A stretch of 64,000 bases of DNA from a bacterium (GTDB lineage Bacteria; SAR324; NAC60-12). The notes under the pieces are model-generated. The model had not been told where the DNA came from and did not search any database. It was given only the letters and a program-made list of their open reading frames with translations. Shown here piece by piece: positions 2,765 through 63,666 of the stretch (positions are counted from its first letter, which is position 1; each line of letters opens with the position of its first letter). The DNA is taken from NCBI GenBank assembly GCA_965209155.1, contig OZ242383.1, positions 4,194,201 to 4,258,200 on the forward strand, in the 5' to 3' direction. Made by a program: the position numbers and the translations under genes.

Positions 2765-3220
2765 CTAATGGGTTTCGTCCAGTCTCTCGTACATCTGATA
2801 GACGCTGGAGGGGAAGACGACGATCTGGTTCCCGTCCGGGTCCCTGAACCAGCGAGCTGGATTAGTCGGGTGCGCCGAATGGACTTCGATGCCTTTACTC
2901 TCGAGATAGGCAATCGCTTCGTCCATGTCGTCAACTTCAAGCGCGAGAAGCCGAAAGCCGGTCTGCTCCAGGGCAGGTTCCTTGTAATCGGGATTGGCCG
3001 GTGCATCCGGGTCGATCGAAAACAGCTCGACGATCGAGCCATCTTCCCCGGCCTTCGGGGCGTTGAGTGAAAGGTTGGCCACCTCTTTCAACCGCTCCAT
3101 GCCTTTCACCGTCCACCGCTCCCGGACTTCAAAGCCGAGGATTCCGCAGTAGAAATCGAGGAATCTTTCGGAATCGGCCGTTGCTAATCCGATGTGATCC
3201 AATCGTTTGAACTTGAACAT
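2765..3220 (-). CDS. VOC (glyoxalase/bleomycin resistance/dioxygenase) family protein
   Basis: 151-aa ORF with typical VOC N-terminus (RLDHIGLATADSERFLDFY) and matching size. Confidence 0.6.
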   Translation of the reverse strand: MFKFKRLDHIGLATADSERFLDFYCGILGFEVRERWTVKGMERLKEVANLSLNAPKAGEDGSIVELFSIDPDAPANPDYKEPALEQTGFRLLALEVDDMDEAIAYLESKGIEVHSAHPTNPARWFRDPDGNQIVVFPSSVYQMYERLDETH

Positions 3221-7205: not shown

Positions 7206-7417
7206 GTAACTATTCAGGTCTCTGAAAAACCCGTTCAGTTAAATATCATTAAAAAGATTCCCGGAGAGGAACGATCGTTTTCAAATCCTCCCACGATATT
7301 GTTCCATTGATCGGGAACCCTCTCTTTCACTAAAACAACTCAGTGAAGGCATGAGTTTAGCACTACTACTACTTGCGCAATGTCAACCCCATATTAAAAA
7401 AAAATGCAGGATTCGTA
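7206..7417. repeat. Left copy of ~212-bp imperfect inverted repeat bounding the 7.2-14.3 kb accessory block
   Basis: Reverse complement of 14068-14282 aligns over ~212 bp at roughly 88-90% identity (begins GTAACTATTCAGGTCTCTGAAAAACCCGTTCAGTTAAATATCATTAAAAAGATTCCCGGAGAGG); outer end is ~29 nt upstream of the SBP start codon. Confidence 0.8.
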
Positions 7418-7660
7418 AAAAAAATGAAAAATCTATCAGTCAGGGAGATCCACGTTCTAAGCGCTCTTGCTTCCATGGCTCTCGTTCTTTTTCAAAGAGT
7501 GGACTGGCTTCTTGAAGAGCCTCGAGGTGGGGAATCGTGGTGAGAAAAGTTGATTTTCTCTGATGTCTGCGACTAATGACCTGGAAAAAGAGGCTGCTTC
7601 CTTGTTGATCCAGGACTTTGTATTTCCCGAGAGACGGAATCATCCGCCTGGCGAATCCTT

Positions 7661-8920
7661 CTAGACATCTTCATCCTTCTCAGTTTCCTGCTCCGATTCA
7701 GGAACTTCTTCATAGCTGACTCTGAATTCGGTTCCCTCTGTTTCGGGGTGTGAATTGGGGTACAAACGCAACAGGTCCCATTCATTTATCGACGCTCGGA
7801 CCTTGTATCTCATCCTGTTTCGATATCCCGCCCCACCTACCATGCTCTTTAATGGTGGGGCTTCCCATCCATAGGCAACGCTGTAGATTTCCCGAAGTTT
7901 TTCGACGGTCGCTTTCACGTCTTCTGCGGTCGGGGGTTCTAGTGCAATAGTCTCCTGCTCAAGGCTCCGCATACCCACTTCAGCTCTGTCCGCAGCGTCA
8001 ATATTTCCACGGGAACGCAAACGGGAACCTGCCGAGTCGAGGTCCCGCTTGCCAGTTAAAATGGCTGTAGCGAAGTCGTCAGTTACCGTGCCAGCAACAA
8101 CCAGTCCTGGACATGCTTTAGCAGAAACCTCTCCCAACCAGAAGGCCAGCTCTGCATAGGAACGAGCTCTTTGAAGTGGTCCATAAGAAGCGACTAATTC
8201 GACTTCGTCTAACAAAACAACCCAACCATTGTAGCCTGCCGCCTTGATCAACTCTGTTGCGAACCGTAGCCGTAGTGGAGGTAATTCTCTCGCTTTCGGC
8301 GCTTTGAAGGGAAAATTCTGTAACTGACCTATTGCTTTGAGGCCATCTTTTACCTTAGCCATCGCAATCCGCTCTCCCGACCAGAACGCTCTGACTTCAT
8401 TAATCAGTTCAAGATCGTTTGTCCTTTCATGGAGCATCAAGGTTGCCGGGAAAACAGGGTGCAGTTGTCCACTTCGATTGGCCCACTGAAAAAAATGCGC
8501 ATAAGCATCTGTTTCCTGTTCAAGACTGAGTCCGATTTCTTCCATAAGCTGCCCGGTTCGGTCTGGTATCCGGCCGTTGTCTATCGCGGATGTGAATACC
8601 TTAGCCTGGTCATAGAGCGGCGTCTCTTTGCTGATAGCTACTCTACTACACACAAAACCCCGCTTCAACGCCAGGTGTTCCAGATAGGAAAGCAGGTGAG
8701 ACTTGCCTGTGCCAAAATCTCCGGAAACCAATATCCCCAAGGAACGGGAAGGAGGATTATCCGGATCCGTACACTTGGCCAAGAGTTCAGTGAACTGACT
8801 TACTACTTGAGACTGACCACATCCCAATCGTTTTACCGATTCCTCATTGGGCACGCCACTCCGCAGGGCTTCCAATGCCTGCCTGCAAGAAAAAGCACTT
8901 TTATCTATATCGGTACCCAT
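7661..8920 (-). CDS. P-loop NTPase of unknown function (third gene of three-gene operon)
   Basis: 419 aa; Walker A GDFGTGKSHLL and Walker B-like VVLLDEVE; acidic C-terminal tail; 16 nt downstream of the preceding ORF. Confidence 0.7.
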   Translation of the reverse strand: MGTDIDKSAFSCRQALEALRSGVPNEESVKRLGCGQSQVVSQFTELLAKCTDPDNPPSRSLGILVSGDFGTGKSHLLSYLEHLALKRGFVCSRVAISKETPLYDQAKVFTSAIDNGRIPDRTGQLMEEIGLSLEQETDAYAHFFQWANRSGQLHPVFPATLMLHERTNDLELINEVRAFWSGERIAMAKVKDGLKAIGQLQNFPFKAPKARELPPLRLRFATELIKAAGYNGWVVLLDEVELVASYGPLQRARSYAELAFWLGEVSAKACPGLVVAGTVTDDFATAILTGKRDLDSAGSRLRSRGNIDAADRAEVGMRSLEQETIALEPPTAEDVKATVEKLREIYSVAYGWEAPPLKSMVGGAGYRNRMRYKVRASINEWDLLRLYPNSHPETEGTEFRVSYEEVPESEQETEKDEDV

Positions 8921-8936
8921 ACGGATTTGTCCCTTC

Positions 8937-9887
8937 TTAAAAGAGTTGCACCAAAGGAGCTATAGGATTCACCAGATTTTTATCCCGAACATCATCCATA
9001 ACTCTTGTCATAAGGGCAGGATAAATACCAAACCCCCGGGAACGAGCATCCTGCTCAAGAAATGCGCCATCCGTCACGATCACAAGTAAAGTACTAACCA
9101 ATTGCTCAGTTCTATCGATTAATTGCCTCAAAAGTTCGTAGTGATCCGTCGTCATGCTTTTAGTGTAGTATCTGAGCCCATCTACCGGATTACGGGCAAG
9201 CGTCACACGGGAATTGTCGAGCAGAATCACGGTTCCTGCATGTCCCGTATACTGGAAATAGTAAAGTGCCGATTCAATGAAATACCTCGCTGTTTTGCGG
9301 TTGATGCTGGTGTAGATCGAAAATGGCCTGACCGCGCCAAGTTTGGCCTCTCCTGTTAGCCAATCAATCAGCGCTTGACCTTCGTAGGATTGATTTCCAC
9401 GGTTGTTCTCGTATCGGCAAAGATGAGTCATAGCAACCCTGAAATCTTTAGTCATACGATATTTTTTGGTAACTTTATTTTCTATTTGAGGTCTCAGCTC
9501 CTGCAGTACGGATTCCAACTCGAGATCATTGACTTCTCCCATAGCCTTATAAATGTTATCGGTTTGATGCGAATCAATGGAATCAACCCGATAGCCAATT
9601 TCCTTGGCCATGCGTAAGAGCAAGCGACGGGCCAATTTCCGCCAGTCAACCTGCTTGGCCATCTCGAAAAAGATGTCTTGGGGCATATGGATTCTGATAT
9701 CTGACGCATCCAGCTTGACAACGACATAATCCTGTTCCTTGCCTCGATTCTCCACTGTTTCATATAAGGTCGGTTTCAAATTTTCCGGGGTCACTGCAAA
9801 TTTTATGGACGCGCCGCCCTGCGGGATGAAAGACGATAAGTATTCGGAATCGATACGTCGCAGCCAATCATGAAGGGATAGGTTCAT
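8937..9887 (-). CDS. Hypothetical protein (second gene of three-gene operon)
   Basis: 316-aa ORF with GGAGG SD ~10 nt upstream; start codon 2 nt from the stop of the upstream ORF; no motif assignable by eye. Confidence 0.6.
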   Translation of the reverse strand: MNLSLHDWLRRIDSEYLSSFIPQGGASIKFAVTPENLKPTLYETVENRGKEQDYVVVKLDASDIRIHMPQDIFFEMAKQVDWRKLARRLLLRMAKEIGYRVDSIDSHQTDNIYKAMGEVNDLELESVLQELRPQIENKVTKKYRMTKDFRVAMTHLCRYENNRGNQSYEGQALIDWLTGEAKLGAVRPFSIYTSINRKTARYFIESALYYFQYTGHAGTVILLDNSRVTLARNPVDGLRYYTKSMTTDHYELLRQLIDRTEQLVSTLLVIVTDGAFLEQDARSRGFGIYPALMTRVMDDVRDKNLVNPIAPLVQLF

Positions 9888-9889
9888 TA

Positions 9890-10681
9890 TTATTTGCCTC
9901 CAATGAATTGGATTCCGTAATATGACACCACTTGCCCGTCGGAACCTACGATGGGAAAACTGCCTCGCGCGCTCCTTGCCAATGTAGAAGAGGGAAAAGC
10001 TACGCGTGCGCCAGACTTTGTACTGGACGGACCATTGATCTCCAAGAAATAAAGGTCCTTTGCAAAATCCAGCTTTTTATAATCATTGCTGGCCCCGGGA
10101 AGAGAGGTGAATGCCTTATAGATTTCCTCTAGAGGTACCACAGGTTCTTTGATTGAAGAACCGACAGAGGAGGGTTTAGCGCAGAGTTTGTAATTAAAGT
10201 ACAAAGCCTCCAAGAAGCGGTCTGAACGAAATCGGGGTGGTTTTTTCTGGTTATTGGTCAGGATGTCAGCAAGGTAAGACGGTCTCAACGTCGATACTTT
10301 TTTCCGATCAATTCTCACTACCTGACTCTCAGGTAAGATTTGAACAATAGACGGGTGAGAAATCAATGCGCCATCTCTTTCATAGAGGTTCAATCCCTTT
10401 CTTTCCGCTGTGTCACATAGCTCGGCAGCATAGTGTTCCTTGAGGTATTCTATCTCTTTTCCATCCTCAAAAGGCCATGTTTCTACCGCGTTTTCCACCT
10501 CCTGCCTTAGAGAACATAGAGCGCTGTTTAACTTTGAAGCAGCCTTTTTTAGTGCGCTGATATCCCCTTTCTTTGCTGCATTCCGTAAAACTCCGGCCAA
10601 CTTTGCAAGTTCTAATGCAGATTTCATTGTTGAATTTGCAGCTTTTTCCGTATCACTGAAGGCCCGTTCAAAGCTCGTCAT
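9890..10681 (-). CDS. Hypothetical protein (first gene of three-gene operon)
   Basis: 263-aa ORF with AAGGGG SD upstream, helical-looking N-terminal half; no recognisable family. Confidence 0.6.
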   Translation of the reverse strand: MTSFERAFSDTEKAANSTMKSALELAKLAGVLRNAAKKGDISALKKAASKLNSALCSLRQEVENAVETWPFEDGKEIEYLKEHYAAELCDTAERKGLNLYERDGALISHPSIVQILPESQVVRIDRKKVSTLRPSYLADILTNNQKKPPRFRSDRFLEALYFNYKLCAKPSSVGSSIKEPVVPLEEIYKAFTSLPGASNDYKKLDFAKDLYFLEINGPSSTKSGARVAFPSSTLARSARGSFPIVGSDGQVVSYYGIQFIGGK

Positions 10682-11604
10682 TATCTACCCCTTTGCTTCC
10701 GTTCATTTTCCCACAACCCAGCCTTGTCATGGTTTGTTGAGTTATAACCTTGATGTCATCTCGACCGCATGGAGAGATCCCAAGATTCCTCACGTTCGTT
10801 CGAAATGACACATTTTTAAATGGGATATAACCTAACGAACCATTACATCTTAGGGACTAAAATAGTGTTTTTTATAACCGTTTTTTGAGAAAATAGGCAA
10901 GCAAAAAAATCAGAAAAAGTTTGACAGTGATTTTTGAATATTTTTTTAACTGTTCATTGATTCAAATTAGCAGTGTTGAATCTTACGCAATCTTTGCTCA
11001 GATTTAAGAACCTGTTTAAAAATTACGTACTGCGTTTTAACATGAGTCGAATCATAGCGATATAGACAATGACTTCAGCAGTGTGAGCATATCTTTCATA
11101 ATCGGTATTTTGTCGATGATACTATCCAAACCAAGAAATGGTTCTTTCCACAATCCATCACAATATGTCGTTTCCGTCCCTTCACCTTTTTTCCTCCTTA
11201 AAACCCCCGGAACCTCGCTGTTTTTCTGCATTTTGATTTTCTCACTCATCTGTCTCCTTTCTCCTTTTCATCAAATTTCCTTGCTCCTATGTCCCTCCAC
11301 AGCTGTTCAAAATTGTCCTGCAATCATTTTATAAGTCTCCACCCGATCTTTCGCATTGATTCTTTCTCGGGATCTGCGTACCTTTTTCATACGATCTCCC
11401 TTCGTTGGGTTAAAGTTTTGCGTGGTCCATGAAACCACAACATAACGAATGTGAGTTCATTTTTCAGTTTTCAACTAATTTTTGGACATTTCCTACCTTT
11501 AGTCCTTCCAGAATATTTTCTTTTGTCAGTTATTTTAAGTCAATAGCTGTTTGGCAATAAAATTGCATGTCTTTTTAATGTCCATTTTTTTAAAAAGGAG
11601 GTAG

Positions 11605-11883
11605 ATGTATCAAAGCAATTTAAGCGATCAGCAATGGTCTGAGATTGAACATTTTTTTAGACGTTCCGATCCCCGAGGTGCCAAAAGTATTCATAGCAAA
11701 CATACCATCGTCAATGCGATTTTATATGTGTTGGAAACGGGTTGTCAGTGGAGACTGCTTCCCCACGATTTTCCTCCCTGGCAAACCGTTTACGATCATT
11801 ATCGCCGCTGGAATCAAAGAGGGATTTGGCAAGAGGTTTTGGATTTCCTCAATGCCCGCACTCGCGTGAAAGAGGGTTCTTAG
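11605..11883 (+). mobile_element. IS5-family (IS4/5 DUF4096-type) transposase N-terminal fragment, IS remnant
   Basis: 92 aa with the characteristic N-terminal region (NAILYVLETGCQWRLLPHDFPPWQTVYDHYRRWNQRGIWQEVL) but no DDE catalytic domain follows. Confidence 0.7.
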
Positions 11884-11935
11884 AGTCCTTCCAATGTTTT
11901 CTTTTTTGTCAGTCTTTTGACCTTATAGATGCCTT

Positions 11936-12390: not shown

Positions 12391-12924
12391 TTGTATGCTT
12401 TCATTAGGCGTAACTGCAGAGTCCCGGACTGTTGGGGACTGAAGGATCGTGACCTGATGGGATTGCCTTGGCGAGTAGCATTTGCATTACAAGACGACGG
12501 ATGGTTGCTGCGCTCAAAAATCACCTGGCTGAAGAAAGCTCCTATGCCCGAAAGCGTCAAGAACCGACCGTCAAACGCCACAGAGGAAATCTTTCTGTTC
12601 TCAAAAAGTGCAAAATACTACTACAACAATCAGGCAGTGCGAGAAGAAACCGGCGCCAATCTCCGGAATTACTGGCTGTTGGGGACGGATGCTGGTGACA
12701 AGCTGCATCCCGCCGTTTTTCCAAAAGAATTGGCACGGCGCTGCATAATCTTGGGTAGCCGTCCCGGAGATGTGATTCTTGACCCGTTTTCAGGGTCGGG
12801 AACTACTGGCATAGCAGCGATCGAGTCAAATCGTCGCGTCGTCCTTATTGAATTGAACGAAGAATATGCGACACAATCCGAAACCCGGATAAATAAGGGC
12901 GTACAGCAAACCTTAGCTGTTTAG
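12391..12924 (+). pseudogene. N-truncated DNA methyltransferase (beta-class N6A/N4C type), C-terminal portion only
   Basis: Contains the region preceding motif I (LHPAVFPKELARRCI) and motif I itself (DPFSGSGTT) plus the upstream ITWLKK segment, but the DPPY-type catalytic motif that lies N-terminal in this class is absent. Confidence 0.6.
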
Positions 12925-13238: not shown

Positions 13239-14067
13239 AGGTCAATCGTTGCATTCATTGGATTGTTGAAAAATCCCGTGCAATGGAATCCGTCAAATCA
13301 CCACACCGTTGTATGGAGAGGAGTTTAAATCATGAGTAGCTCGATCCAACAATCCCTGCCCTTTGAAGAAGCAGTACACCTTGAAGGTCCTGGTCGACTC
13401 GGTCAGGCGAAGATCGAGTACGCCCCCGTCCAAAACATTCTGACGCGCGCAAAATGAAGCTTTTAGTGTCCTTCAAATGCACTTGCCGGATCTCGGTGAA
13501 GGAAAGGACGGCTTTGCTCCCCCTTTTGAAACCGAATGAAGGAAAATCCACGATGATTTTCAAAAAAAATTGCATGCTTGTGCTCTCAGGTCTCCACATC
13601 GTGGTCCACAAGCGTTCGATTGAAAGGCAAAGCAATGACTAAAAAGCCGAATCACTATCGCAGCGGATGGTTTATTTTCCGAGTCGGTAACATACGCCTC
13701 GGTATGTACCATCATGGTCTGGGCGATTGATAAAATTAAAGACAAGCGGGTGATACTCTCTCTTTTGCGGCATTGAATAACCCAGGAAATTCTCGCGGCT
13801 GTTTTGAGGTTTTATGAATAATGAGTCTTCCACAAGGTTTAAACCTCAAAAAACGCTATTGGGGCTGACACTTTTGGGCGAGAGGATATTTTTGCGCAAC
13901 GGCAGGTCAAGTTATTGATGAAATGATTAAAAGTTATTTGGAGCATCATTTTGAATCGAATCCTGATGATGATTTTCAGACCGAAGCCTAAACGGGTCTG
14001 AAATGACCCGTATCCGTACTTTCAGTACTTGAGTTTAAACCCTCCATCTTCGGACGGTGTTTGTTTA

Positions 14068-14282
14068 TTTTTTTTACGAATCCTGCATTTTTTCATTTGG
14101 AGGTTGACATTTTGCAAGATATATTGCCAAAATCATGCCTTTACTAAGTTGTTTTAGTGAAAGAAAAGGTTCCCGATCGATTGAGCAATATCGTGGAAGG
14201 ACTTGAAAACGATCGGTCCTCTCCGGAAATCTTTTTTAATGATATTTAACTGAACGGGTTTTTCAGAGACCTGAATAGTTAC
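14068..14282. repeat. Right copy of ~212-bp imperfect inverted repeat bounding the accessory block
   Basis: Reverse-complement match to 7206-7417; outer end ~73 nt upstream of the lipoprotein start codon at 14355. Confidence 0.8.
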
Positions 14283-14354
14283 GTTTTTACTTACTGAAAT
14301 ATAATTCATTTTAGCGTAACTTTTGTTAAAATACCTTTCCCTGGAGAAATTATT

Positions 14355-16140: not shown

Positions 16141-16640
16141 TGCTTTGATCACCGGATTCACGCCTTTTGCTTAATGAGCAATCGTGTTCCTCCCTACTCT
16201 CTTCCTCTTTGAAGACAGATCATTCATCAAATGGATCGAGTTTATCAACTACCGGAGAATGAATTAACCCGAGTTCGACATAAATCTTCAATAATAGGAG
16301 TATTCTGGCGTTTATGTCTTTCCGGGCGCAGACCCGAAATCCAGATTTCAGTCTGGCTGCATACCTCTGGATTCCTGGTCAAGCCAGGAATGACACGTTT
16401 TCTCTACAGTCACGAAAGTCGAGTGAAGCCCGCGCGATGATTAGCCTGTTGGCTGTCGATTGGAAGTCCGCCACTATTCGAGTAGTCGGAAAATTTTAAA
16501 TTGAGATGATTTGACGATCAGCTTTGCTATGCACCAGTTGCGACAACGATTGAAGGAATCCGAGGGTCTCCAAATTCAATTAGAGGAACTAAAACGTCAA
16601 ATACTTGCTTGAAGTTTCAAACTTTCAGGCCTGACTCCTT
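16141..16640 (+). repeat. Dispersed ~500-bp repeat, element X copy 1
   Basis: Near-identical to 18060-18556 and, over its 3-prime ~240 bp, to 21961-22200; contains an embedded REP-like hairpin unit. Confidence 0.75.
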
Positions 16641-18009: not shown

Positions 18010-18556
18010 GAAACGTCCAATACCTACTTGAAGTTTCAAACTTTCAGGCCTGACTCCTTTTTCATTATCACCGGATTCACGCTTTTTACTTAATGAGCAA
18101 TCATGTTCCTCCCTGCTCTCTTCCTCTTTGAGGACGGATCATTCATCAAGAGGCTCGAGTTTATCAACTACCGGAGAATGAATTAACCCGAGTTCGACAT
18201 AAATCTTCAATAATAGGAGTATCCTGGCGTTTATGTCATTCCGGGCGAAGACCCGGAATCCAGGTTTCAGTCTGGCTGCATACCTCTGGATTCCTGGTCA
18301 AGCCTGGAATGACACGTTTTCTCTGCAGTCACGAAAGTCGAGTGAAGCCCGCGCGATGATTGACCTGTTGGCATTCGATTGGAAGTCCGCAACAATTCGG
18401 GAGGTCGGAAACGTTTTCAATCGAGATGATTAAACGATTAGGTTTGGAGTGCACCGCTTGAGACCACGATTGAAGGAATCCGAAAGTCTCCAAATTCAAT
18501 TAGAGGAACTGAAACATCAAATACTTGCTTGAAGTTCCAAACTTTCAAACCAGACC
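18010..18556 (+). repeat. Dispersed repeat, element X copy 2 (with tail of an additional copy at its 5-prime end)
   Basis: Aligns with 16141-16640 along nearly the full length; the tail motif CTTGAAGTTTCAAACTTTCAGGCCTGACTCC is present at both ends. Confidence 0.75.
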
Positions 18557-19834: not shown

Positions 19835-20326
19835 TCACAATTCATTTTTTACTATTTCCTGAATAATTTTTTTAAATCTCTTAAATTCAATCTTTAATTC
19901 TTGTATAGTTTTATCTAATTCAACCATGTTCTTTCTGGAATTCATTTTAAATTCTTCATACGTCATATCAGGATCATATGTAGGTGATAATCGGACACTA
20001 ATAAAAAGAAGAACAAATGAACAAATAAAAACAACAAATGCTCGCTTTCGAGTTGGCAAGTACAAACGAGAAATGGGGTACAACATACAAATAAACGATA
20101 TTATACTAATGATCATAAAGACAAATACTAAAATAATACTTATTTCTTCCATTGTAGGTGGTAATTGGACACTAATAAAAAAAAGAACAAATGAACAAAT
20201 AAAAACAACAAATGCCCGCTTTCGAGTTGGCAAGTACAAACGAGAAATGGGGTACAACATACAAATAAACGATATTATACCAATGATCATACAGACAAAT
20301 ACTAAAATAATGCTTATTTCTTCCAT
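19835..20326 (-). CDS. Membrane protein with internal tandem duplication
   Basis: 163 aa; a ~58-aa unit with a transmembrane helix (MEEISIILVFV...RKRAFVVFICSFVL) occurs twice, from a direct ~186-bp DNA tandem repeat; opposite-strand ORF 19926..20594 judged a shadow. Confidence 0.45.
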   Translation of the reverse strand: MEEISIILVFVCMIIGIISFICMLYPISRLYLPTRKRAFVVFICSFVLFFISVQLPPTMEEISIILVFVFMIISIISFICMLYPISRLYLPTRKRAFVVFICSFVLLFISVRLSPTYDPDMTYEEFKMNSRKNMVELDKTIQELKIEFKRFKKIIQEIVKNEL

Positions 20327-20759: not shown

Positions 20760-21020
20760 TCATGATTTATCTGAATATTCATCAGCCAGGATGCGATAGG
20801 CATAGTCAATGTCTTCCGGATCTTGAGTTTTAAAATACCTGCCCATTTCGTAACCCAGACTGATCCACGTAATATAATTTAAATCAACCGTATCCAATCT
20901 TTTCCCTTTCCAGCCATCACGGAATGCTGATTGTTTATCCTCCGTAGGTGGCTCACGATTATCGGCAAATTTTTCCTCTTGTAATTCCCGAAGACGATTT
21001 AATACATTTTGATATCTCAT
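20760..21020 (-). CDS. Small protein, paralog family member
   Basis: 86 aa; NLTWxSLGYEMG...DPEDIDY...RILADEY core shared with its tandem neighbour. Confidence 0.5.
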   Translation of the reverse strand: MRYQNVLNRLRELQEEKFADNREPPTEDKQSAFRDGWKGKRLDTVDLNYITWISLGYEMGRYFKTQDPEDIDYAYRILADEYSDKS

Positions 21021-21286
21021 TATTCCCTATTATTTTTTGAATATTCATCAGCCAGGATGCGATAGACATAGTCAATATCTTCCGGATCTTGAGTTTTAAA
21101 ATACTTGCCCATTTCGTAACCCAGACTTTTCCACGTGAGGTTATTCGGATTTAATCTTGATATTCCTTTTCCAAACCATGCTTGTCGAAATGCTGATTGT
21201 TTATGCTCCGTAGGTGGCTCACGCTTTTCGACAGGCTTTTCCTCTTTTAATTCCTGAAGACGATTTAAGATTTCTGAATATTTCAT
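21020..21286 (-). CDS. Small protein, paralog family member
   Basis: 88 aa; tandem with 20760..21020, overlapping stop/start (translational coupling). Confidence 0.5.
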   Translation of the reverse strand: MKYSEILNRLQELKEEKPVEKREPPTEHKQSAFRQAWFGKGISRLNPNNLTWKSLGYEMGKYFKTQDPEDIDYVYRILADEYSKNNRE

Positions 21287-22213: not shown

Positions 22214-22891
22214 TTAAAGACCTGTAATGAATAGAATGAAATAACCATCATATTTAATTAATTTTTCAATTCCATAAGTAGGGATGCCTATAGTAAAATC
22301 AGAACGAACCTCCATAGAATTTGTTTGAGTAGGAACGTCATTAATATAAACACCAAAATAACCGATTGATAGAGGTCTTTCATACGGAATTATTTTGAAT
22401 CGGATTTTAAAATCTGATAATTGAATAAATGATGCAGCAGATGATTCAAAAAAACTTTCCATTTTCACACGTAGTTCGGGGGGGAAATGTAAACCTAGCG
22501 TCCTAACGCCTTCATCATTAGGGAAATAAGTAATATTAATTATTTCTTCATCAACATATTTACCATCCCTTTCTTTATCTAAAAAAGCGGGAATCGAAAA
22601 AGAGACCATATGTTTAAATAGTCCTTTTTCTTCACATCCTAAATATTCTGCCCCTTTGAAAATAAAAGGAATTTTTGCTTGTAATTCAAAAACTGTATCT
22701 TCTGGCAAATTACTTTTGCTCTTAGTACATCCCTGAACTTCAATATTCATAATTCCATTAACCTCTATCGGATCTGTCCCTTCTTTAGCAAAATTAGCGA
22801 GGTCGATTTCCATAAATAAATCTAGATCACAACCTGAAATCAAAACTACAATTAATAACAAACCCAATATGCTGAAAATTGACTTTTTCAT
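22214..22891 (-). CDS. Hypothetical lipoprotein (paralog of 23258..23911)
   Basis: ORF 22214..22903 trimmed to MKKSIFSILGLLLIVVLISGC (lipobox); GGAG SD upstream. Confidence 0.55.
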   Translation of the reverse strand: MKKSIFSILGLLLIVVLISGCDLDLFMEIDLANFAKEGTDPIEVNGIMNIEVQGCTKSKSNLPEDTVFELQAKIPFIFKGAEYLGCEEKGLFKHMVSFSIPAFLDKERDGKYVDEEIINITYFPNDEGVRTLGLHFPPELRVKMESFFESSAASFIQLSDFKIRFKIIPYERPLSIGYFGVYINDVPTQTNSMEVRSDFTIGIPTYGIEKLIKYDGYFILFITGL

Positions 22892-22914
22892 ATCAAACTC
22901 CAAATATAATTTAT

Positions 22915-23257: not shown

Positions 23258-23911
23258 TTAAAAATTGTATGATTGAGTACTGAATACGACAAATTCCTTC
23301 ATTTCATTTGATAACAAAACCCTTGTCCCGTAATGGGGTATTCTTACAGAGAACTCAGAATTCAGTGTAGTATCTATAAATTGGTATGGTTTATCATTCA
23401 AATACACTCCCATTCCTTTTACATTCAATGGAGTCAAATCGGGTAAGATTTGGAATTTTATATTAATATCATCCATTTTTATTTCATCAGACGCAGATAT
23501 TAACAAATTCAATTTCCCTTTTAATCCTGGAGGAAATGAAAAAATTAATTCTCTTTCACCATTTTCAAGTTTAAAATATTCTAAATTTGATATTTCATCA
23601 TCCACTGGTTTGTCATTGTCATTATTATCAATATAAACTGGAATTTCAAATAACAAGTAATAGTCAAAACCCGAACGATCACAATCCTCATATTTTGCCC
23701 ATTTGAAGACATAAAGTAATTGTTCTTTTAATTTACTGACATCATCACTATCACACACATTAACTTCCACTGCCAATCGACCTTTTATAAGAGTTGATTT
23801 ACCATCATCAGTAAATAGATTGAGATTAACTGGTATATCAATAAAAATATCACAACTGGCTATAACTAAAGATATTACTAGTAATTTTATACAACAAACA
23901 ATCTTCCTCAT
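23258..23911 (-). CDS. Hypothetical lipoprotein (paralog of 22214..22891)
   Basis: ORF 23258..23956 trimmed to MRKIVCCIKLLVISLVIASC (lipobox); shares domain order and several motifs with the neighbouring lipoprotein. Confidence 0.5.
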   Translation of the reverse strand: MRKIVCCIKLLVISLVIASCDIFIDIPVNLNLFTDDGKSTLIKGRLAVEVNVCDSDDVSKLKEQLLYVFKWAKYEDCDRSGFDYYLLFEIPVYIDNNDNDKPVDDEISNLEYFKLENGERELIFSFPPGLKGKLNLLISASDEIKMDDINIKFQILPDLTPLNVKGMGVYLNDKPYQFIDTTLNSEFSVRIPHYGTRVLLSNEMKEFVVFSTQSYNF

Positions 23912-24106
23912 AAGACATTCTCCATGAAAATAATTGCAAATGAATATGGTCAGCATAGTAAAAATTGAAATTGTTCTTGAAGCTATTCAATTTGAAGAAA
24001 AAATTATTTTTGGCTGAGCTGCTTGAAATCGGATTCGCCCAACGTTTAGCTTCAATTGTTTTTTTTTGGAAAAATCCCCAGCTCAATCAACAAACTATCA
24101 TCTCCT

Positions 24107-25650: not shown

Positions 25651-26189
25651 ATCCCTGATCCGAGTTGGCTGTCCCACCGACCGAGTGTTTCCCTTTGAAG
25701 ATGGCATACGTGGTTCATGCGCGTGTATCTTCTTCCTGGAATTTCATTTTTACGTGGCAATCTGTTTCTCGATGGCGCTGTGATAAAAAGGTTGCATTCG
25801 ACGTCCGTATGGGGACGCCGGGTTATAGCAACGCAACCTAATCTAGGAGGAAGGCCCGACTATTTGTCCAGAATGGAGTGGCCAAACTCCAATCAGATTA
25901 GGGACTATTCTATTCATCGGGTAACCCGACAAATAAATTAAGTCGCGTTGCTGTTCACACTATGAATGAATGATTTAGAGATGTCAATATACTTTTCCAA
26001 AAAAATATAATCTTTATTTTACGAAAAGACGCTCGACTCCGGTGAGCATTACTGAGTGGAAGGCAATTGCCTGGAAATATCAATGTCCCGGGGCCTATGG
26101 ACTCCGCAGACGGTCGTTTACATATTATCCATTACATTCCCTATGATTTGATCCTGGTACGCTTTGGTGTGAGTCCGTAGATCCTCTCT

Positions 26190-26650
26190 ATGTCATTCCT
26201 GTGCAAGTGGGAATCCAGGGAATCGAAATGACCCCTGGATTCCGGGTCTTCGCAAGGAATGACACATTCTTGGATTCGGGGTCTTCGCCTGGAATGACAT
26301 CCTCCTGGATTAGCGGTATTCGTTTGGAAAGACACGTTCATGGATTCCTGGTCTGTGCAAGGAATGACACATTCTTGGATTACTGGTCTGTGCCAGGAAT
26401 GACACATTCTTGGATTACTGGTCTTCGCCAGGAATGACACATTCTTGGTGTGGTGTTTTTCGCTTGGAATGACACGTTCCTGGATTACTGGTCTTCGCCA
26501 GGATTGACATCCTCCTGGATTAGTGGTATTCGCCAGGAATAACACATTCTTGGATTAGTGGTATTCGTTTGTAATGACATGTTCCTGGATTTCTGGTCTT
26601 CGCAAGGAATGACACGTTCCTGGATTCCTGATCTGTGCAAGGAATGACAA
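26190..26650 (+). repeat. Tandem array of ~12 REP-like 35-bp hairpin units
   Basis: Contiguous degenerate units of consensus TGGATTCCGGGTCTTCGCCAGGAATGACACATTCT, each with an internal inverted repeat; no unique spacers. Confidence 0.8.
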
Positions 26651-26679
26651 CGCTGCGAATAGCCGGAAGGGTTTCTGCC

Positions 26680-27906
26680 TCAGCGGACGAATTTGCGGAC
26701 GAGATTGAGGGGTTGCGCGTTGCCGGCGGTTGGAAGCACCACCAGGCTGCTCGCCTGGCAGTTGGGAATCGGTTGGTGGCGGATATTCTTCAAGTCACCC
26801 GCGGGCAAAGGGATGGTGCTTCCATCAAAGGAAAGAATTTCAAGAAAGTCCTGGTAGCAGAACGGATTTTGCGCGAGCAGGGTCATGTAACGAGATTTTA
26901 CTTCAACCAGGGTTCCCGCCATTTCATAGCGTGCATTGTTTATTCCCAGCCCTTCATTGTCGTTATAAATACTGTCCGCACCTGCAGGCTGCGTCAAGGA
27001 GCCTTGCGTATACGGGCGGTGAGGGACTTTTTCCAGTTCCGCGGACAGGGGGGGCAGGTCGACCTCCATTTCCCCTGGTCGTTCCCGGTACTTTCTCAAT
27101 GCGGCGGCATAGGTCCGGACGGTCGTGGCCACGTAGAGATTGCTTTTCATGCGTCCTTCAATTTTGAGACTGCAAACCCCCGCCTTCACGAATCGAGGGA
27201 GGAGTGCCAGACCCTGTAAATCTTTGGAACTCATGAAAGTCGTTTTCTCGAATGAAGGGTCCCGTCCGCGCTCTTGATCTTTTTTATTCTCCCGGATGGA
27301 ATAAGAAAAGCGGCAGCTTTGCGCGCAACCTCCTCGATTGCTGTCCCGGCCCAGGGTGTAATTGGAAATGGTGCAGTTGCCGGAATAGGCCATGCACATC
27401 GAGCCGTGGATGAACATTTCCACTTCGATGCCGGCTCGTTCCCGGATGACCCGCGCCTGGTCGATGGAAAGTTCACGTCCCAGAACAATACGCTTCACTC
27501 CCAGGTTTTTCCATAGCACGGCCGCCTGGGAGTTCAAACAGGAAGCCTGGGTGGAGAGGTGGATGGCGAGGTTGGAATGGCGTTGCGCCACCGAAAGCAT
27601 TCCCGCATCCGAAACGATCACGGCGTCGACACCGCAAGATTCCAGAAATTTGACGTAATCCGGGAGATCGAGCAACTCTTCATCGTGGGGGAAGGAATTC
27701 AAAGTAACGTAAACTTTCACGCCTCGTTGTTGGGCAAACGCGACTCCTTCCTCCATGTCCTCGTCCGAAAAATTATCCGTCCCGGCACGCAAGCCGAAGC
27801 AAGGCCCGGCCAGGTAGACCGCATCCGCTCCGTACAATACGGCAATTTTCAATTTTTCCAGGTTGCCGGCCGGTGCCAGCAATTCGGGGATTGCCTGGGG
27901 CTTCAT
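26680..27906 (-). CDS. Peptidase U32 family protein
   Basis: 408 aa; N-terminus ELLAPAGNLEKLKIAVLYGADAVYLAG typical of the U32 family; conserved cysteine-containing core. Confidence 0.75.
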   Translation of the reverse strand: MKPQAIPELLAPAGNLEKLKIAVLYGADAVYLAGPCFGLRAGTDNFSDEDMEEGVAFAQQRGVKVYVTLNSFPHDEELLDLPDYVKFLESCGVDAVIVSDAGMLSVAQRHSNLAIHLSTQASCLNSQAAVLWKNLGVKRIVLGRELSIDQARVIRERAGIEVEMFIHGSMCMAYSGNCTISNYTLGRDSNRGGCAQSCRFSYSIRENKKDQERGRDPSFEKTTFMSSKDLQGLALLPRFVKAGVCSLKIEGRMKSNLYVATTVRTYAAALRKYRERPGEMEVDLPPLSAELEKVPHRPYTQGSLTQPAGADSIYNDNEGLGINNARYEMAGTLVEVKSRYMTLLAQNPFCYQDFLEILSFDGSTIPLPAGDLKNIRHQPIPNCQASSLVVLPTAGNAQPLNLVRKFVR

Positions 27907-28088
27907 TCCAAGTCTCGATTGTCGGCGTAATTTAACCTGGGTTCGATGTTACTCTTCGAATCCGAGTGTCCTTTTGAGTATGTCATTCTCTCCCAATCGG
28001 GAAAGCAGATTTTGGTTGCGCTGAATCTCCCTGGATTCCTGGTCAAGCCAGGAATGACACGGAATAAGAAAACAAACCGGCCCACGGC

Positions 28089-33617: not shown

Positions 33618-33853
33618 AAATGCTCCTGGTTCTGATGATTATCCGAGAATCCCGTTTTTTCAACGAATGCTGACATTTTATCAAATCCCCTGGGAATTCC
33701 AAGCATGAACTTCATAAGAACGGAGACGCTTCATGGACCAATGCCGAATGCTCTTCCTGAAATCGGTTACCTCGCCTTGTCCTCCCATCAGCACGGTCGT
33801 TCTGTCCTCCCATCGCGAACCTCTCCTTGTGCTCCCATCGGCATCGTCGCCTT

Positions 33854-34075
33854 GTCATTCCTGGCTTGACCAGGAATCCAGTGTTGGTAAGGATTTCCTG
33901 GATTCCGGGTCTGCGCCAGGAATGACACACTCCTGGATTCCCGATTGCAGGGGCCAGGACATTTTCGTTCCCCTGGATTCCGGGTCTGGGCCAGGAATGA
34001 CTCACTCTTAGATTCCTGGTCTGCGCCAGGAATGACTCACTCTTGGATTCCGGGTCTGGGCCAGGAATGATACTC
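33854..34075. repeat. Tandem array of REP-like hairpin units (about 6 units, mixed orientation)
   Basis: Units such as GTCATTCCTGGCTTGACCAGGAATCCAG and CTGGATTCCGGGTCTGCGCCAGGAATGAC. Confidence 0.8.
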
Positions 34076-34094
34076 TCCCGAAAACGTCCTTTAC

Positions 34095-34913
34095 TCAGCT
34101 TTTTTCCCGGGTCACCCGGATAAAAGGTTGTACCAGCAATCCGGGTAATTTCAGGGAACCGGGTTCACGGAACTCTTTCAGCCCGATGCTCATTCCTTCA
34201 TGACCCGCTTCCGGTTGATCCCGGTAGGTGCCGAACAAACGGTCCCACCATGGAAAATTGAATCCATAGTTGCTGTCGGTCTCGTATGGAACGACGGAGT
34301 GATGAACCCGGTGCATGTCCGGAGTGACAATGAATTTCCGCGCGATACGATCCACGTTCAATGGAAGAAAGAAGTTGCTGTGATTGAACATGGAGGAGCC
34401 ATTGAGCAGGATTTCAAAAATCAAGACGGCCAGGACCGGGGCGCCGATGAGAATTATCGCCACTATTTTGATCAACAGGGAAAGCAATATTTCAAAGGGA
34501 TGGAAACGCACTCCCGTCGTCAAATCAAAATTCAAATCCGTATGGTGGACCCGGTGCAGTCTCCAACAAAGCGGTATTTTGTGGAAGAGCACGTGCTGCC
34601 CATAGATCAAAAAATCCAGGAAAAGAATAGCAACCACAATTTTGATGGGTTCCGCTGCCTCCACTTGTTGCAGGAGACCCCACTGCCGCTGTTCGGCAAG
34701 GTGGGCGACCACAACGGGAGTGATCCAACCCAGAAACCAGACCAACAATGCGTTCAACAGCGTCAATCCCAGGTTGCTGCGCCAACGGGATGCTTTGGAA
34801 ACCGTCGGAACCAGGCGAGGCTTCAGTAATTCACCGAGGGCCAGTATGAAAAAAAGCCCCAAAAAGCAGCCCAGGCGGATTGCGCTTTGATGGTCCGTGA
34901 TATAGATTTCCAC
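34095..34913 (-). CDS. Fatty acid hydroxylase / sterol desaturase family membrane protein
   Basis: 272 aa; histidine boxes (HRVHH and HRVHHS) in a membrane protein. Confidence 0.75.
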   Translation of the reverse strand: MEIYITDHQSAIRLGCFLGLFFILALGELLKPRLVPTVSKASRWRSNLGLTLLNALLVWFLGWITPVVVAHLAEQRQWGLLQQVEAAEPIKIVVAILFLDFLIYGQHVLFHKIPLCWRLHRVHHTDLNFDLTTGVRFHPFEILLSLLIKIVAIILIGAPVLAVLIFEILLNGSSMFNHSNFFLPLNVDRIARKFIVTPDMHRVHHSVVPYETDSNYGFNFPWWDRLFGTYRDQPEAGHEGMSIGLKEFREPGSLKLPGLLVQPFIRVTREKS

Positions 34914-43370: not shown

Positions 43371-43790
43371 ATGACACTGGATACCTATCTCAACTTCAAC
43401 GGCAATTGTCGGGAAGCCTTCAATTTTTATCGCTCCGTGTTCGGTGGTGAGTTTACCACGATACAAACTTTCAGGAACGGCCCCCCTGATATGGGAGTGG
43501 CCGAAGAGGAGCTGGATAAAATATTACACGTTTCGCTACCAATAGGAACCAGCGTCCTGATGGGCAGCGACATGCCTTCCAATTTTGGTCCGGAACGTGT
43601 TTTCGGCAACAATTTTTCAATATCCGTGAGCCCGGAAAGTAAGGAAGAGGCGGACCGGCTCTTCACTGAGCTTTCCGGAGGTGGGTCGGTCACCATGCCC
43701 ATACAGGACGTTTTTTGGGGTTCCTATTTCGGTTCGCTCACCGACCAGTTCGGCATAAACTGGCAGGTCAATTTTGACCGGCAAACATAA
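43371..43790 (+). CDS. VOC family protein (PhnB-like glyoxalase fold)
   Basis: 139 aa; YLNFNGNCREAFNFY N-terminus and GxxWG motif (DVFWGSYFGSLTDQFGINWQVN) typical of the PhnB-like subgroup. Confidence 0.7.
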   Translation: MTLDTYLNFNGNCREAFNFYRSVFGGEFTTIQTFRNGPPDMGVAEEELDKILHVSLPIGTSVLMGSDMPSNFGPERVFGNNFSISVSPESKEEADRLFTELSGGGSVTMPIQDVFWGSYFGSLTDQFGINWQVNFDRQT

Positions 43791-43835
43791 AAGCGCAAGC
43801 CGTCCTCGAATTCCCAAAGAGAGAAGCCCAACATC

Positions 43836-44042
43836 CCCTGGATTCCGGGTCTGTGCCCGGAATGACAACACTAACGCCGCCTGGATTCCGGGTCTGCGCC
43901 CGGAATGACAACACTGACATCCCCTGGATTCCGGGTCTGTGCCCGGAATGACAACACTGACATCCCCTGGATTCCGGGTCTGTGCCCGGAATGACAACAC
44001 TGACATCCCCTGGATTCCGGGTCTGTGCCCGGAATGACAACG
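43836..44042 (+). repeat. Tandem array of five 43-bp REP-like hairpin units
   Basis: Near-identical units CCTGGATTCCGGGTCTGTGCCCGGAATGACAACACTGACATCC, each with inverted repeat ATTCCGGG / CCCGGAAT; no spacers. Confidence 0.85.
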
Positions 44043-46799: not shown

Positions 46800-47243
46800 A
46801 TGTCGAGACAAGAAGTAACTGAAAAATTGTTGGACGCGAAAAAGAAAAAAGGCGTCACTTTTGAAGAAATCGCAGCTGTGGTCGGAGGAGACAAAGTGTG
46901 GATCGCGTCGGTGATGTTCGGACAAAACAGCATGGAAGCGGAACAAGCGAGGAATCTCGCGGAATACCTGGAGCTGGGAAGCGACGTTGCCGAATCGATC
47001 CAGGAATGTCCGATGAAAGGGGACCTGAACCAGACGGTTCCCATCGATCCCCTCATTTATCGTTTTTACGAAATCACCCAGTGCTATGGGAGCAGTATGA
47101 AAGCCATCATACATGAAATGTTCGGGGACGGTATCATGAGCGCAATCGATTTCAGTATCGATATCAGCAAAAAAGAAGATCCCAAAGGAGACCGGGTGGT
47201 GGTCACCTTTGATGGAAAATTTTTACCCTATCGTAAATGGTAA
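46800..47243 (+). CDS. cynS: Cyanase (cyanate hydratase)
   Basis: 147 aa; C-terminal half (IDPLIYRFYE...GDGIMSAIDF...KFLPY) matches CynS closely. Confidence 0.9.
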   Translation: MSRQEVTEKLLDAKKKKGVTFEEIAAVVGGDKVWIASVMFGQNSMEAEQARNLAEYLELGSDVAESIQECPMKGDLNQTVPIDPLIYRFYEITQCYGSSMKAIIHEMFGDGIMSAIDFSIDISKKEDPKGDRVVVTFDGKFLPYRKW

Positions 47244-47810
47244 GTCATCACCACCGGCAGAGCCGGTGGCTTGAAGAGGCCCCCAGTATGAGGGCAAAAC
47301 GTGTTCGTCATCGTAAGACGTGCTCGTGCTCGTGAACGAAAAAGGCTGCCATGTTAGATCATGAAAAACTCGATGTATACCAATGTTCCATCGAATTTTT
47401 AGCGTTATCTGTCCAAGTCATCGAAACATTGCCAAAAGGATACTCAGCCTTAGTTGACCAACTGAAAAGGGCCTCATGGTCGATTCCTCTCAATATCGCA
47501 GAAGGCTGTGGAAAAAATTCCTTTGCTGACAAGCAACGATTCTATGCATTGGCCCGAGGTTCCGCAATGGAATGCGCTGCTATTCTCGATGTTTTAAACG
47601 TGTTGAAGATCATCCAGCCTCCTTTATTTGACGAAGGGAAACAGTTACTTCATCGCATTGTTTCTATGTTAACCAAAATGTGCCGTCAAATTCACTGACC
47701 GTTCACGAGCACGAGCACGGCTAACGGACACGGATACGTTTCTCATGTCTGACCGGCAAAGCCTATTAGGTTCGCACCAGCAGAGCTGGTGGTTTAATGA
47801 GATTAATTAT
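47244..47810 (+). mobile_element. IVS-like cassette carrying four-helix-bundle protein gene (copy 2, intact)
   Basis: Begins immediately after the cynS stop; palindromic ends (CCACCGGCAGAGCCGGTGG and ACCAGCAGAGCTGGTGG) and long inverted stem arms GTGCTCGTGCTCGTGAACG / CGTTCACGAGCACGAGCAC flanking the ORF. Confidence 0.7.
47351..47698 (+). CDS. Four-helix-bundle protein (23S rRNA intervening-sequence protein family)
   Basis: 115 aa; hallmark motifs LDVYQ, QLKRASWSIPLNIAEG, ARGSAMECAAILDVL. Confidence 0.8.
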   Translation: MLDHEKLDVYQCSIEFLALSVQVIETLPKGYSALVDQLKRASWSIPLNIAEGCGKNSFADKQRFYALARGSAMECAAILDVLNVLKIIQPPLFDEGKQLLHRIVSMLTKMCRQIH

Positions 47811-48750: not shown

Positions 48751-49107
48751 TTGCACGTCGTCCGGATTCCTGTTCAATCCAGGAATGACACATAGAAAAT
48801 TGTCATACCGGACTGGATCCGGTATCCGGGTTTCGTGCCGCTTTCCTGCAATCCCCTTTGCGCCTTTGCGCCTCTCCTTTGTGCCTGGCACCTGACGTCA
48901 GTTTTCCAACTGTCAATAAAAGGAGCCCTCTCGTTCAAAAGAATTGAATTTGCAATTTCAAGTGTGCTACAAATTATTCTTCTTCTAGTCGGTTCTGAAC
49001 CAGTAAACCATTTCGTTTCCCGCAGGAAGTCCCAGAGTGTTTCTCGTATGGATAACGGTTTTTTACTGACAGGACCCCGGTAAAATATGAATAATGAGGA
49101 GTAATTT

Positions 49108-57679: not shown

Positions 57680-57834
57680 CACTTCACCGGTATTAGAACC
57701 ACTGCATATCCGCGCCTCCCGGCATGTCATTCCCGCGAAAGAGGGAATCCAGAGTCCTTCGCCGCAGGTCCGCGCCATCCCTGCGAGTCCTTCCCGGCTT
57801 GCCCTGGAATCCAGATCCCTATGGTCCTGGCAGT

Positions 57835-63645: not shown

Positions 63646-63666
63646 TGGTTCACCGGACGTCAGTGA

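Follow-up and report, generated by a model that had tools for sequence, protein, structure and literature searches.

The 64-kb stretch of bacterial DNA analysed here (64,000 nucleotides of contig OZ242383.1, called the window throughout) carries three head-to-tail arrays of a short palindromic unit, made of 12 copies of 35 nt, 5 copies of 35 nt and 5 copies of 43 nt, along with dispersed copies of the same unit. These repeats are tandemly amplified hairpins of the NTS/dRS3 type, a known system in a new arrangement and no new category of biology. An earlier note on this DNA had described a dispersed, always intergenic hairpin family with three tandem arrays, and Tandem Repeats Finder placed all three exactly where that note did: array 1 at 26234-26649 (period 35, 11.9 copies, 77% matches), array 2 at 33896-34078 (period 35, 5.1 copies) and array 3 at 43831-44041 (period 43, 4.9 copies, 94% matches). 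A profile hidden Markov model (HMM) made from the units found ~31 units in the 64 kb, ~9 of them dispersed, and the palindrome ATTCCNGG-N6-CCNGGAAT, with up to 2 mismatches, was observed 21 times in the window against 0.48 expected from shuffles. The intergenic placement also held, since no unit in the window lay inside any open reading frame (ORF) with a Pfam match, and the ORFs that overlap the arrays, such as 26141-26545 on the minus strand, were without support.

Genes flanking the arrays encode U32 peptidase, Exo_endo_phos, PfkB, fatty-acid hydroxylase, glyoxalase-family and NMT1-family proteins, and all three arrays start 17-41 nt past a stop codon. Array 1 (26233-26650, minus strand, 12 units) begins 29 nt past the stop codon of the U32 peptidase gene (26680-27906, minus strand), and is closed at its other end by a single unit of opposite orientation (26190-26220, plus strand) that forms an inverted pair with the first array unit. 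Beside the last array-1 unit lies a 21-nt tail, ACGCTGCGAATAGCCGGAAGG (26651-26671, plus strand). In a related metagenome-assembled genome (MAG; locus L005), at a locus not orthologous to this one, a unit is followed by the same tail, and this recurrence beside a unit at an unrelated locus identifies it as part of the mobile element itself and not as flank of the U32 gene. L005 was considered as an ortholog of array 1 and rejected, because tblastn places it beside a different gene; the pair and its 21-nt tail therefore constitute a mobile unit. Array 3 is followed by a tail similar to that of array 1.

Array 2 (33896-34073, minus strand) holds five units with a nominal period of 35 nt, four good and the third decayed (33931-33970), which together with filler occupies 40 nt. 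Between the array and the stop codon of the upstream fatty-acid hydroxylase gene (34095-34913, minus strand) are 17-22 nt, and the profile HMM located a closing unit of opposite orientation at 33853-33881 on the plus strand. Array 3 (43831-44041, minus strand) consists of five nearly identical 43-nt units, each a unit plus a 12-nt linker, and begins 41 nt past the stop codon of a VOC/glyoxalase-family gene (43371-43790, plus strand).

The sites that the earlier note listed as single units all exist, but several are compound. At 16314-16396 there is a gene-less inverted pair, resembling a miniature inverted-repeat transposable element (MITE), with a 19-nt spacer, and a second copy of this pair lies at 18233-18315 within a 300-nt duplication; the latter is 84% identical to positions 3037-3175 of a locus in a related MAG (L063). 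The 28-kb site, between the U32 and PfkB genes, has a good unit at 28029-28060, but also a decayed inverted partner forming the left arm of a pair (27981-28060). Two units of the same orientation occupy 57724-57815 on the plus strand, the first (57724-57754) reading TGTCATTCCCGCGAAAGAGGGAATCCAG and the second (57787-57815) being weak. The site at 48762-48791 (minus strand) is a single unit, 12 nt past the stop codon of an ABC-transporter ATPase gene.

Unit structure, folding and orientation

The unit is ~30 nt long and consists of an 8-bp stem (ATTCCNGG / CCNGGAAT) with asymmetric flanks, 5'-TGTCAT ... AATCCAGG-3'. On the plus strand an array unit reads CCTGGATTCC-N-GG, a 5-6-nt loop, and CC-N-GGAATGACA, and on the opposite strand it reads TGTCATTCC-stem-loop-stem-GGAATCCAGG. 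We define as forward the strand reading 5'-TGTCATTCC..GGAATCCAGG-3', which is the one cut by the nuclease SsnA in Neisseria; by this definition the forward strand of all 22 array units is the minus strand of the window. GC skew over the 64 kb was noisy and gave no assignment of leading and lagging strands. In the consensus of 24 array units, GTGTCATTCC...AATCCAGG, conservation is at least 90% in the flanks TGTCATTCC and AATCCA and 30-60% in the inner stem.

Palindromes are separated by a constant 13 nt in arrays 1 and 2 and by a constant 21 nt in array 3. The 35-nt period is composed of ~31 nt of repeat and a 4-nt remainder that is conserved too. This bears out the earlier description of abutting units with a conserved inter-stem segment, as the linkers are a constant 7-15 nt and the whole period is conserved. 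Since each period is a unit plus a constant linker, there are no spacers. Degenerate or orphan clustered regularly interspaced short palindromic repeats (CRISPR) share with these arrays a regular 35-43-nt period and a palindromic repeat, a resemblance that is superficial, and a relative with a 75% identical U32 protein (L120) has type I-C cas genes beside U32. That relative, however, has no units at the locus, and conservation of the whole 35- or 43-nt period refutes a CRISPR origin. No leader is present, no cas genes were found among the window ORFs scanned (a subset of all ORFs), and Rfam gave no match to a CRISPR direct repeat, so that what the earlier note had named as grounds for a CRISPR, unique spacers with cas genes nearby, was looked for and not found. 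We regard a CRISPR origin as practically out of the question.

The internal inverted repeat, described earlier for every array, is intact in array 3, where all five units have a perfect 8-bp stem, but has decayed in array 1, where none of the 12 do and three retain 4 pairs or fewer. Array 3 is young and array 1 old. On folding, the array-3 units formed stems of 8-9 bp at -7.8 to -8.6 kcal/mol (z -2.4 to -3.1; one unit reached -8.6 kcal/mol, z -3.1), and so provide the ~28-nt, semi-palindromic hairpin typical of NTS and its relatives. For the inverted pairs, folding gave -23.9 kcal/mol (z -6.8) for 26186-26268 at the end of array 1, -26.2 kcal/mol (z -7.5) for 33848-33930 at the end of array 2, and -25.5 kcal/mol (z -7.2) for the pair at 18233-18315; as single strands, the pairs at 16.3 and 18.2 kb both reach about -25 kcal/mol with z of about -7.

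Palindromes at gene ends may act at the RNA level. In E. coli, repetitive extragenic palindromic (REP) sequences protect upstream mRNA from 3' exonucleases, and the arrays could likewise be 3'-untranslated-region elements that terminate transcription or shield mRNA, and be kept for that. Their start at 17-41 nt past stop codons fits such a role, as does the folding of intact units at -8 to -9 kcal/mol. However, the stems have no T tract after them, and terminator-like sites in the window are at chance level. Relative to the upstream gene, arrays 1 and 2 are forward and array 3 is reverse, the stems of array 1 have decayed, and close relatives with the same genes lack the arrays or have them in collapsed form. 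No Rfam family matched anywhere in the window at gathering thresholds; matches on array 1 were at chance level only (E up to 1), and a tRNA scan of the window was empty. The missing T tracts, mixed orientation and decayed array-1 stems speak against the terminator role proposed in the earlier note. An effect on mRNA stability is possible, and we consider it improbable that the arrays are maintained as RNA elements.

Relation to NTS hairpins and the ssn nuclease gene

In Neisseria, the palindrome dRS3 forms the core of NTS, an oriented element of 28 nt, which reads CGTCATTCCCGCGMAVGCGGGAATCYRG (Chenal 2025, Nat Commun, PMC11893778). NTS-like Ssn-related motifs (SRM) are widespread and bracket the ssnA gene, at least one SRM being found near 71% of ssnA homologs (PMC11893778). 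SsnA is a 94-aa, single-domain GIY-YIG nuclease, of a type defined by the CDD entry cd10448 (GIY-YIG_unchar_3), that binds and cuts only single-stranded DNA; it cleaves only the forward strand, ~3 nt 5' of the element, and depends on a GTC on the 5' side of the palindrome for cutting and on a C on the 3' side for binding, and in N. meningitidis it lowers transformation by NTS-carrying DNA (PMC11893778).

Comparison of the window unit with the published NTS showed that they have GTCATTCC...GGAATCCAG in common, including both oriented flanks, and the array consensus carries the GTC 5' of the palindrome and the C 3' of it. The dRS3 core ATTCCC-N8-GGGAAT is present in one of the ~31 units, at 57729-57748, and the rest read ATTCCNGG-N5-6-CCNGGAAT. 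The SRM search string, HGTCWYN(0-2)YYVSBRHN(0-5)WNVSBRGN(0-2)RNCYNB (PMC11893778), was implemented and validated on NTS sequences; with one substitution allowed it matched 26 times in the window, against 6-13 times in shuffles. A second type of hairpin, GTCATACCGGACTGGATCCGGTATC, occurs as one copy in the window at 48802-48826, tail-to-tail with the unit at 48762-48791, and resembles the 'NTSvar' of N. wadsworthii, CGTCATACTCGGG-N5-CCCGAGTATC (quoted in PMC11893778).

The link to the nuclease comes from relatives. Analysis by tblastn and by reading of the sequences identified genes for GIY-YIG proteins of 93-95 aa (Pfam PF01541, E 5e-15 to 8e-19) between or beside units. Inverted units bracket the gene at L063, L121, L122, L123 and L136, all with the same unit subfamily, and at L115 (Cloacimonadota); at L099, in a related MAG, and L072 (Armatimonadota) the gene lies next to units. 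L121-L123 were included solely because their Ssn proteins are 83-90% identical to the product of the L063 gene. The cassette in relatives is laid out as a forward unit, 10 nt, the ATG through to the stop codon, 22 nt, and a reverse unit. A flanking unit at L121, TGTCATTCCTGGCGAAGACCAGGAATCCAGG, is one base from the array-1 consensus and matches the strict SRM string. The ssn gene is multicopy, with many paralogs of 83-95% identity on large contigs of related MAGs. In one copy, at 4405-4431 of L063, codon 9 is a premature TGA instead of the TTA of other copies, and at least some cassette copies are therefore pseudogenes.

At L136 the ssn gene lies between tandem unit arrays of 4.7 and 10.6 copies, and within 2.5 kb there are two more, with periods of 58 nt (4.0 copies) and 43 nt (6.7 copies). 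The 43-nt-period array, 2 kb downstream of ssn, is 76% identical to array 3 of the window. L136 also carries dispersed repeats common with the window, and the MAG of L005, L062, L063 and L099 has dispersed non-coding repeats in common with it at 80-85% identity. The same unit subfamily thus brackets ssn genes in relatives, with tandem arrays on both sides of one ssn gene. Because arrays flank ssn in L136, tandem amplification of cassette ends appears to be habitual in this lineage, and the arrays of the window can therefore be understood as gene-less products of such amplification.

The identity of the bracketed gene also bears on the REP reading of the earlier note, here taken to mean a family of REP sequences or bacterial interspersed mosaic elements (BIMEs) kept by a REP-associated tyrosine transposase (RAYT), of the Y1 HUH type. 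The window family is indeed a short intergenic palindrome, clustered as well as dispersed, and the analogy with REP is drawn in the Ssn paper itself (PMC11893778). However, the units have no GTAG or GGAG head, the arrays run head-to-tail, and the gene bracketed in relatives encodes a GIY-YIG protein and not Y1_Tnp. The data contradict this assignment, which we consider very unlikely.

Taken together, we propose, with a probability of roughly three in four, that the window units are Ssn-related motifs and that the arrays are one end of a unit-ssn-unit element amplified head-to-tail. Several observations count against this proposal. The strict SRM string has no match in the window, failing at its W position or at CCAAG. 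No ssn homolog was found in the 64-kb window by tblastn, so that the partner nuclease is seen only in relatives, and the relatives' proteins are putative Ssn proteins, so called through PF01541 and their bracketing by units. In NCBIfam the GIY-YIG protein of the relatives had only a sub-threshold match to a group I intron endonuclease family, and in the PDB its only match was the UPF0213 protein BH0048 (E 0.005). Most array-1 units can no longer form a hairpin, and because of this loss they may be poor Ssn substrates. GIY-YIG nucleases are not known to join DNA, so that Ssn would not by itself account for the spread of the units. Finally, other phyla carry the double hairpin inside MITEs with unrelated terminal repeats, which leaves room for other mobilising enzymes.

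Array gain, shuffling and collapse, and distribution across phyla

We compared array length between strains, as the earlier note had suggested, at syntenic loci obtained through homologs of the flanking proteins. Array 1 has 12, 12, 1 and 0 units in the window, L118, L119 and L120, respectively. In L118, whose U32 protein is 97% identical, the 12 units are likewise accompanied by the inverted unit, but unit-by-unit identity to the window array is 60-89%, against 87% in one flank measured over 100 nt; the best matches are off-register, and the array has therefore been reshuffled. L119 (U32 86% identical) has its single unit at the array-1 position, 29 nt past the stop codon, and L120 (75%) has none. 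At array 1's place in L120, immediately downstream of U32, are the type I-C cas genes (Cas5d, a 727-aa protein and Cas7; 7737-11928).

At array 2, all 5 + 1 units are replaced in L118 by one hybrid hairpin, TGTCATTCCTGGCCCAGACCAGGAATGACA, which represents either collapse of the inverted structure or the ancestral state. A 25-nt tandem repeat (TCGCCTTGTCCTCCCATCGGCAACG x3.4, 33772-33856) abuts the inverted unit of array 2 in the window, and is kept in L118 despite the collapse of the hairpin array there. For array 3, a short-read contig (L132) encoding a 99% identical VOC/glyoxalase-family protein ends inside the array, and the array is absent from L133 and L134, in which this protein is 83% and 78% identical. 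The window arrays are lineage-specific, differ between close strains and, taken together, are young and unstable. Such comparisons offer natural snapshots of array building, shuffling and collapse, with 0, 1 and 12 units at one locus and 6 units against one hybrid hairpin at another. The nearest named homologs of the window U32 peptidase are from MAGs of the SAR324 cluster, and as this rests on 61-63% identity of one protein, the placement of the host near SAR324 is weak. A betaproteobacterial host (Nitrosomonas or Neisseria), to which the motif had seemed to point, was rejected in view of these homologs.

The distribution of the unit was determined by scanning one genome per prokaryotic species for the pattern TGGATTCCNGG-N4-8-CCNGGAATGACA, which has 21 specified bases. 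At least 117 loci matched, against ~1.4 matches expected by chance (596e9 bases x 2 strands x 5 gap lengths / 4^21). The matches listed, to which the counts in this paragraph refer, span Proteobacteria, Nitrospirota, Chloroflexota, Planctomycetota, Firmicutes, Bacteroidota, candidate phyla and one Woesearchaeota MAG. A stem position that the pattern leaves unconstrained was Watson-Crick paired in 129 of 136 instances (GC 95, TA 20, CG 13), and since it pairs so regularly in three different ways, the stem has been maintained across genomes. An inverted partner was present up to 70 nt upstream in 50 of 125 instances, in the same architecture as the window pairs, and a tandem repeat touched the unit at 15 of 117 loci, with ~12 of those repeats including part or all of the unit. 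The element is not phage-borne, as only 8 stretches in IMG/VR had the pattern; BLAST with the consensus inverted pair gave no match in 72,556 plasmids or 50,697 phages.

An exact 28-mer, TGGATTCCGGGTCAAGCCCGGAATGACA, is present in the Woesearchaeota MAG, on a contig of 2.4 kb (L056), and in several Patescibacteria. The archaeal copy could be a real transfer or a binning error, and binning errors of MAGs could inflate the taxonomic breadth, especially through this single archaeal match. The word 'archaea' is absent from the main text of the Ssn paper (PMC11893778). At L059, L098, L114, L076 and L093, from several phyla, the double hairpin GTCATTCCCGCGAAAGCGGGAATCCAG - ~10 nt - TGGATTCCGGGTCAAGCCCGGAATGACA is nested in elements of ~170 nt with TA-flanked terminal inverted repeats GTGTAGTGCGTC...GACGCACTACAC; those of Sedimentisphaerales (L046, L064) have a different outer repeat (GCCGTTTCAAAAAAG...). 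In the relatives of the window, ssn cassettes at 2398-2878 of L121/L122 have outer 14-nt inverted repeats, AGTCATGTTACGTG ... CACGTAACATGACT, ~70 nt outside the hairpin units, which suggests a larger mobile unit of ~480 bp around the cassette.

Nested structures of this kind raise the question of whether the units are MITEs of a classical transposase, or target sites for an IS110-type or phage recombinase, with ssn as a passenger. The MITE-like inverted pairs, the TA-flanked elements of other phyla and the outer 14-nt repeats of the relatives' cassettes all agree with this explanation, and dRS3 is a known integration site for phages, namely the Nf prophages of Neisseria (PMC11893778, PMC1797815). 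Against it, the window ORFs scanned included no transposase or integrase, and the gene between inverted units is always GIY-YIG (L063, L115, L121-123, L136). The occurrence of SRM near most ssnA homologs in the published survey likewise argues against a passenger role of the gene (at least one SRM near 71%, as given above). We consider this explanation quite unlikely.

Other repeats and cassettes lie elsewhere in the window. A small cassette is present in three copies, at 47241-47810, at 63170-63646 (minus strand) and as a remnant at 1428-1743; its gene encodes a 98-115-aa '23S rRNA intervening-sequence protein' (PF05635, E 2e-21 to 6e-24) and is flanked by inverted hexamer runs, CGTGCT x2.7 ... 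CACGAG x2.7. Two of the copies are 98% identical, that at 1428-1743 is without gene body, and one interrupts an ABC-transporter operon, lying between its genes; they give the impression of a second mobile mini-cassette with no relation to the hairpin family. The segment 16000-24000 is an AT-rich island, with a GC content of 34-37% where the window as a whole has 49%, and may be acquired or hypervariable. It is dense in further repeat families: a 174-nt x2 tandem repeat (19979-20326), a 266-nt x1.9 tandem repeat (20772-21268) and the dispersed repeats D3, D4, D5 and D8. Two DUF7424 paralogs (22214-22903 and 23258-23956) lie in the island. A ~240-nt repeat, also present in a related MAG (L062, L099) at 81-83% identity, occurs as an inverted pair (7206-7451 and 14059-14288) bracketing a 6.6-kb segment that holds a truncated N6/N4 DNA methylase (12391-12924). 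Runs of the octamer CCTTTGCG lie beside transporter gene ends at 48855-48873 (2.4 copies) and 63000-63042 (5.4 copies).

Origin of the arrays and comparison with known systems

If the window units are Ssn-related motifs, their features would mark, by analogy with Neisseria, the place that a small single-domain GIY-YIG nuclease, acting on single-stranded DNA only, recognises and cleaves. The nuclease gene would travel in the lineage as a multicopy unit-ssn-unit cassette, with gene-less inverted pairs left scattered between genes. During DNA uptake, replication or repair, the forward strand could fold when single-stranded, and Ssn would then bind the stem and the following C and nick ~3 nt 5' of the element, that is, in each array linker, if it acts as its Neisseria counterpart does. 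First duplications may arise by slippage or nick repair at the hairpins, after which unequal recombination could expand, shuffle and collapse the arrays. The arrays are probably without dedicated cellular function, as selfish or neutral by-products. Clustered cut sites on one strand would nonetheless be expected to fragment incoming homologous single strands and thereby lower recombination at these loci.

An extension of this proposal, which we hold to be doubtful, is that the arrays are footprints of an Ssn-dependent copying process and not of ordinary slippage. Each period would extend between two successive predicted cut sites of Ssn, if the cut site is placed as in Neisseria, and the arrays would resemble integrated unit-length concatemers formed through nick-primed re-replication or template switching at a folded hairpin. 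Consistent with copying, tandem duplications containing the unit in part or in full recur independently in ~12 unrelated genomes among the matches listed, and the lineage has at least six array periods (31 to 74 nt), some directly beside ssn. Were this correct, repeats would be amplified through the action of a GIY-YIG nuclease, with no transposase involved, and array length would record nuclease activity, or would buffer the nuclease as a decoy.

Among known repeat systems, MITEs such as the Correia elements share with the window copies gene-less inverted pairs of ~80-140 bp that form long hairpins and are intergenic. In the window, however, each arm is itself palindromic, and the window copies showed neither terminal repeats of the transposase type nor target duplications. 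REP sequences are defined by a conserved GTAG or GGAG tetranucleotide at the 5' end of the palindrome, and the REP/BIME-RAYT system resembles the present one in having short, clustered intergenic palindromes that bracket the gene of an enzyme recognising them as single-stranded hairpins, and in the accumulation of gene-less copies. The differences are that the enzyme here is a GIY-YIG nuclease and there an HUH Y1 transposase, that the head here is TGTCAT with no GTAG, and that BIMEs alternate in orientation whereas the window arrays are direct.

The dRS3 repeats of Neisseria and their arrays, the Neisseria intergenic mosaic elements (NIME), are reportedly associated with the work of Parkhill in 2000. 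NIME arrays are the closest known arrangement; they are mosaics in which RS elements from more than 100 families, 19-214 bp in length, lie between the dRS3 copies, and have been stated as not observed outside Neisseria (Bentley et al. 2007, PMC1797815). The window arrays have the same type of palindrome core, ATTCC...GGAAT, likewise adjoin genes, and likewise vary in copy number among strains, but their linkers are constant, with 13-21 nt between palindromes, in place of diverse RS elements. Array-type amplification is thus present in a lineage far from Neisseria, as regular head-to-tail hairpin arrays, some directly beside the nuclease gene, although NIME-type arrays had been stated to be absent outside that genus (PMC1797815). 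For annotation, such arrays break short-read assemblies, yield spurious ORFs and can be mistaken for CRISPRs.

The NTS/SRM-Ssn system, described only in 2025, is the closest match. Both have a hairpin of ~28-30 nt with oriented flanks GTCAT...AATCC(A/T)G, both are intergenic, in the style of hundreds of copies and in many phyla, and both show the unit-gene-unit arrangement around a 94-aa single-domain GIY-YIG gene, seen here in relatives. The window differs in lacking the nuclease gene, in missing the strict search string at one position, in its stem, which is CCNGG where that of NTS is CCCGCG, and in its loop of 5-6 nt. The closest named relatives of its host are SAR324 MAGs, and not a host-associated proteobacterium. 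The word 'tandem' is absent from the main text of the Ssn paper (PMC11893778), and what sets the present lineage apart is its homogeneous head-to-tail arrays, with periods of 31-74 nt and up to ~12 copies, which are found also directly beside ssn.

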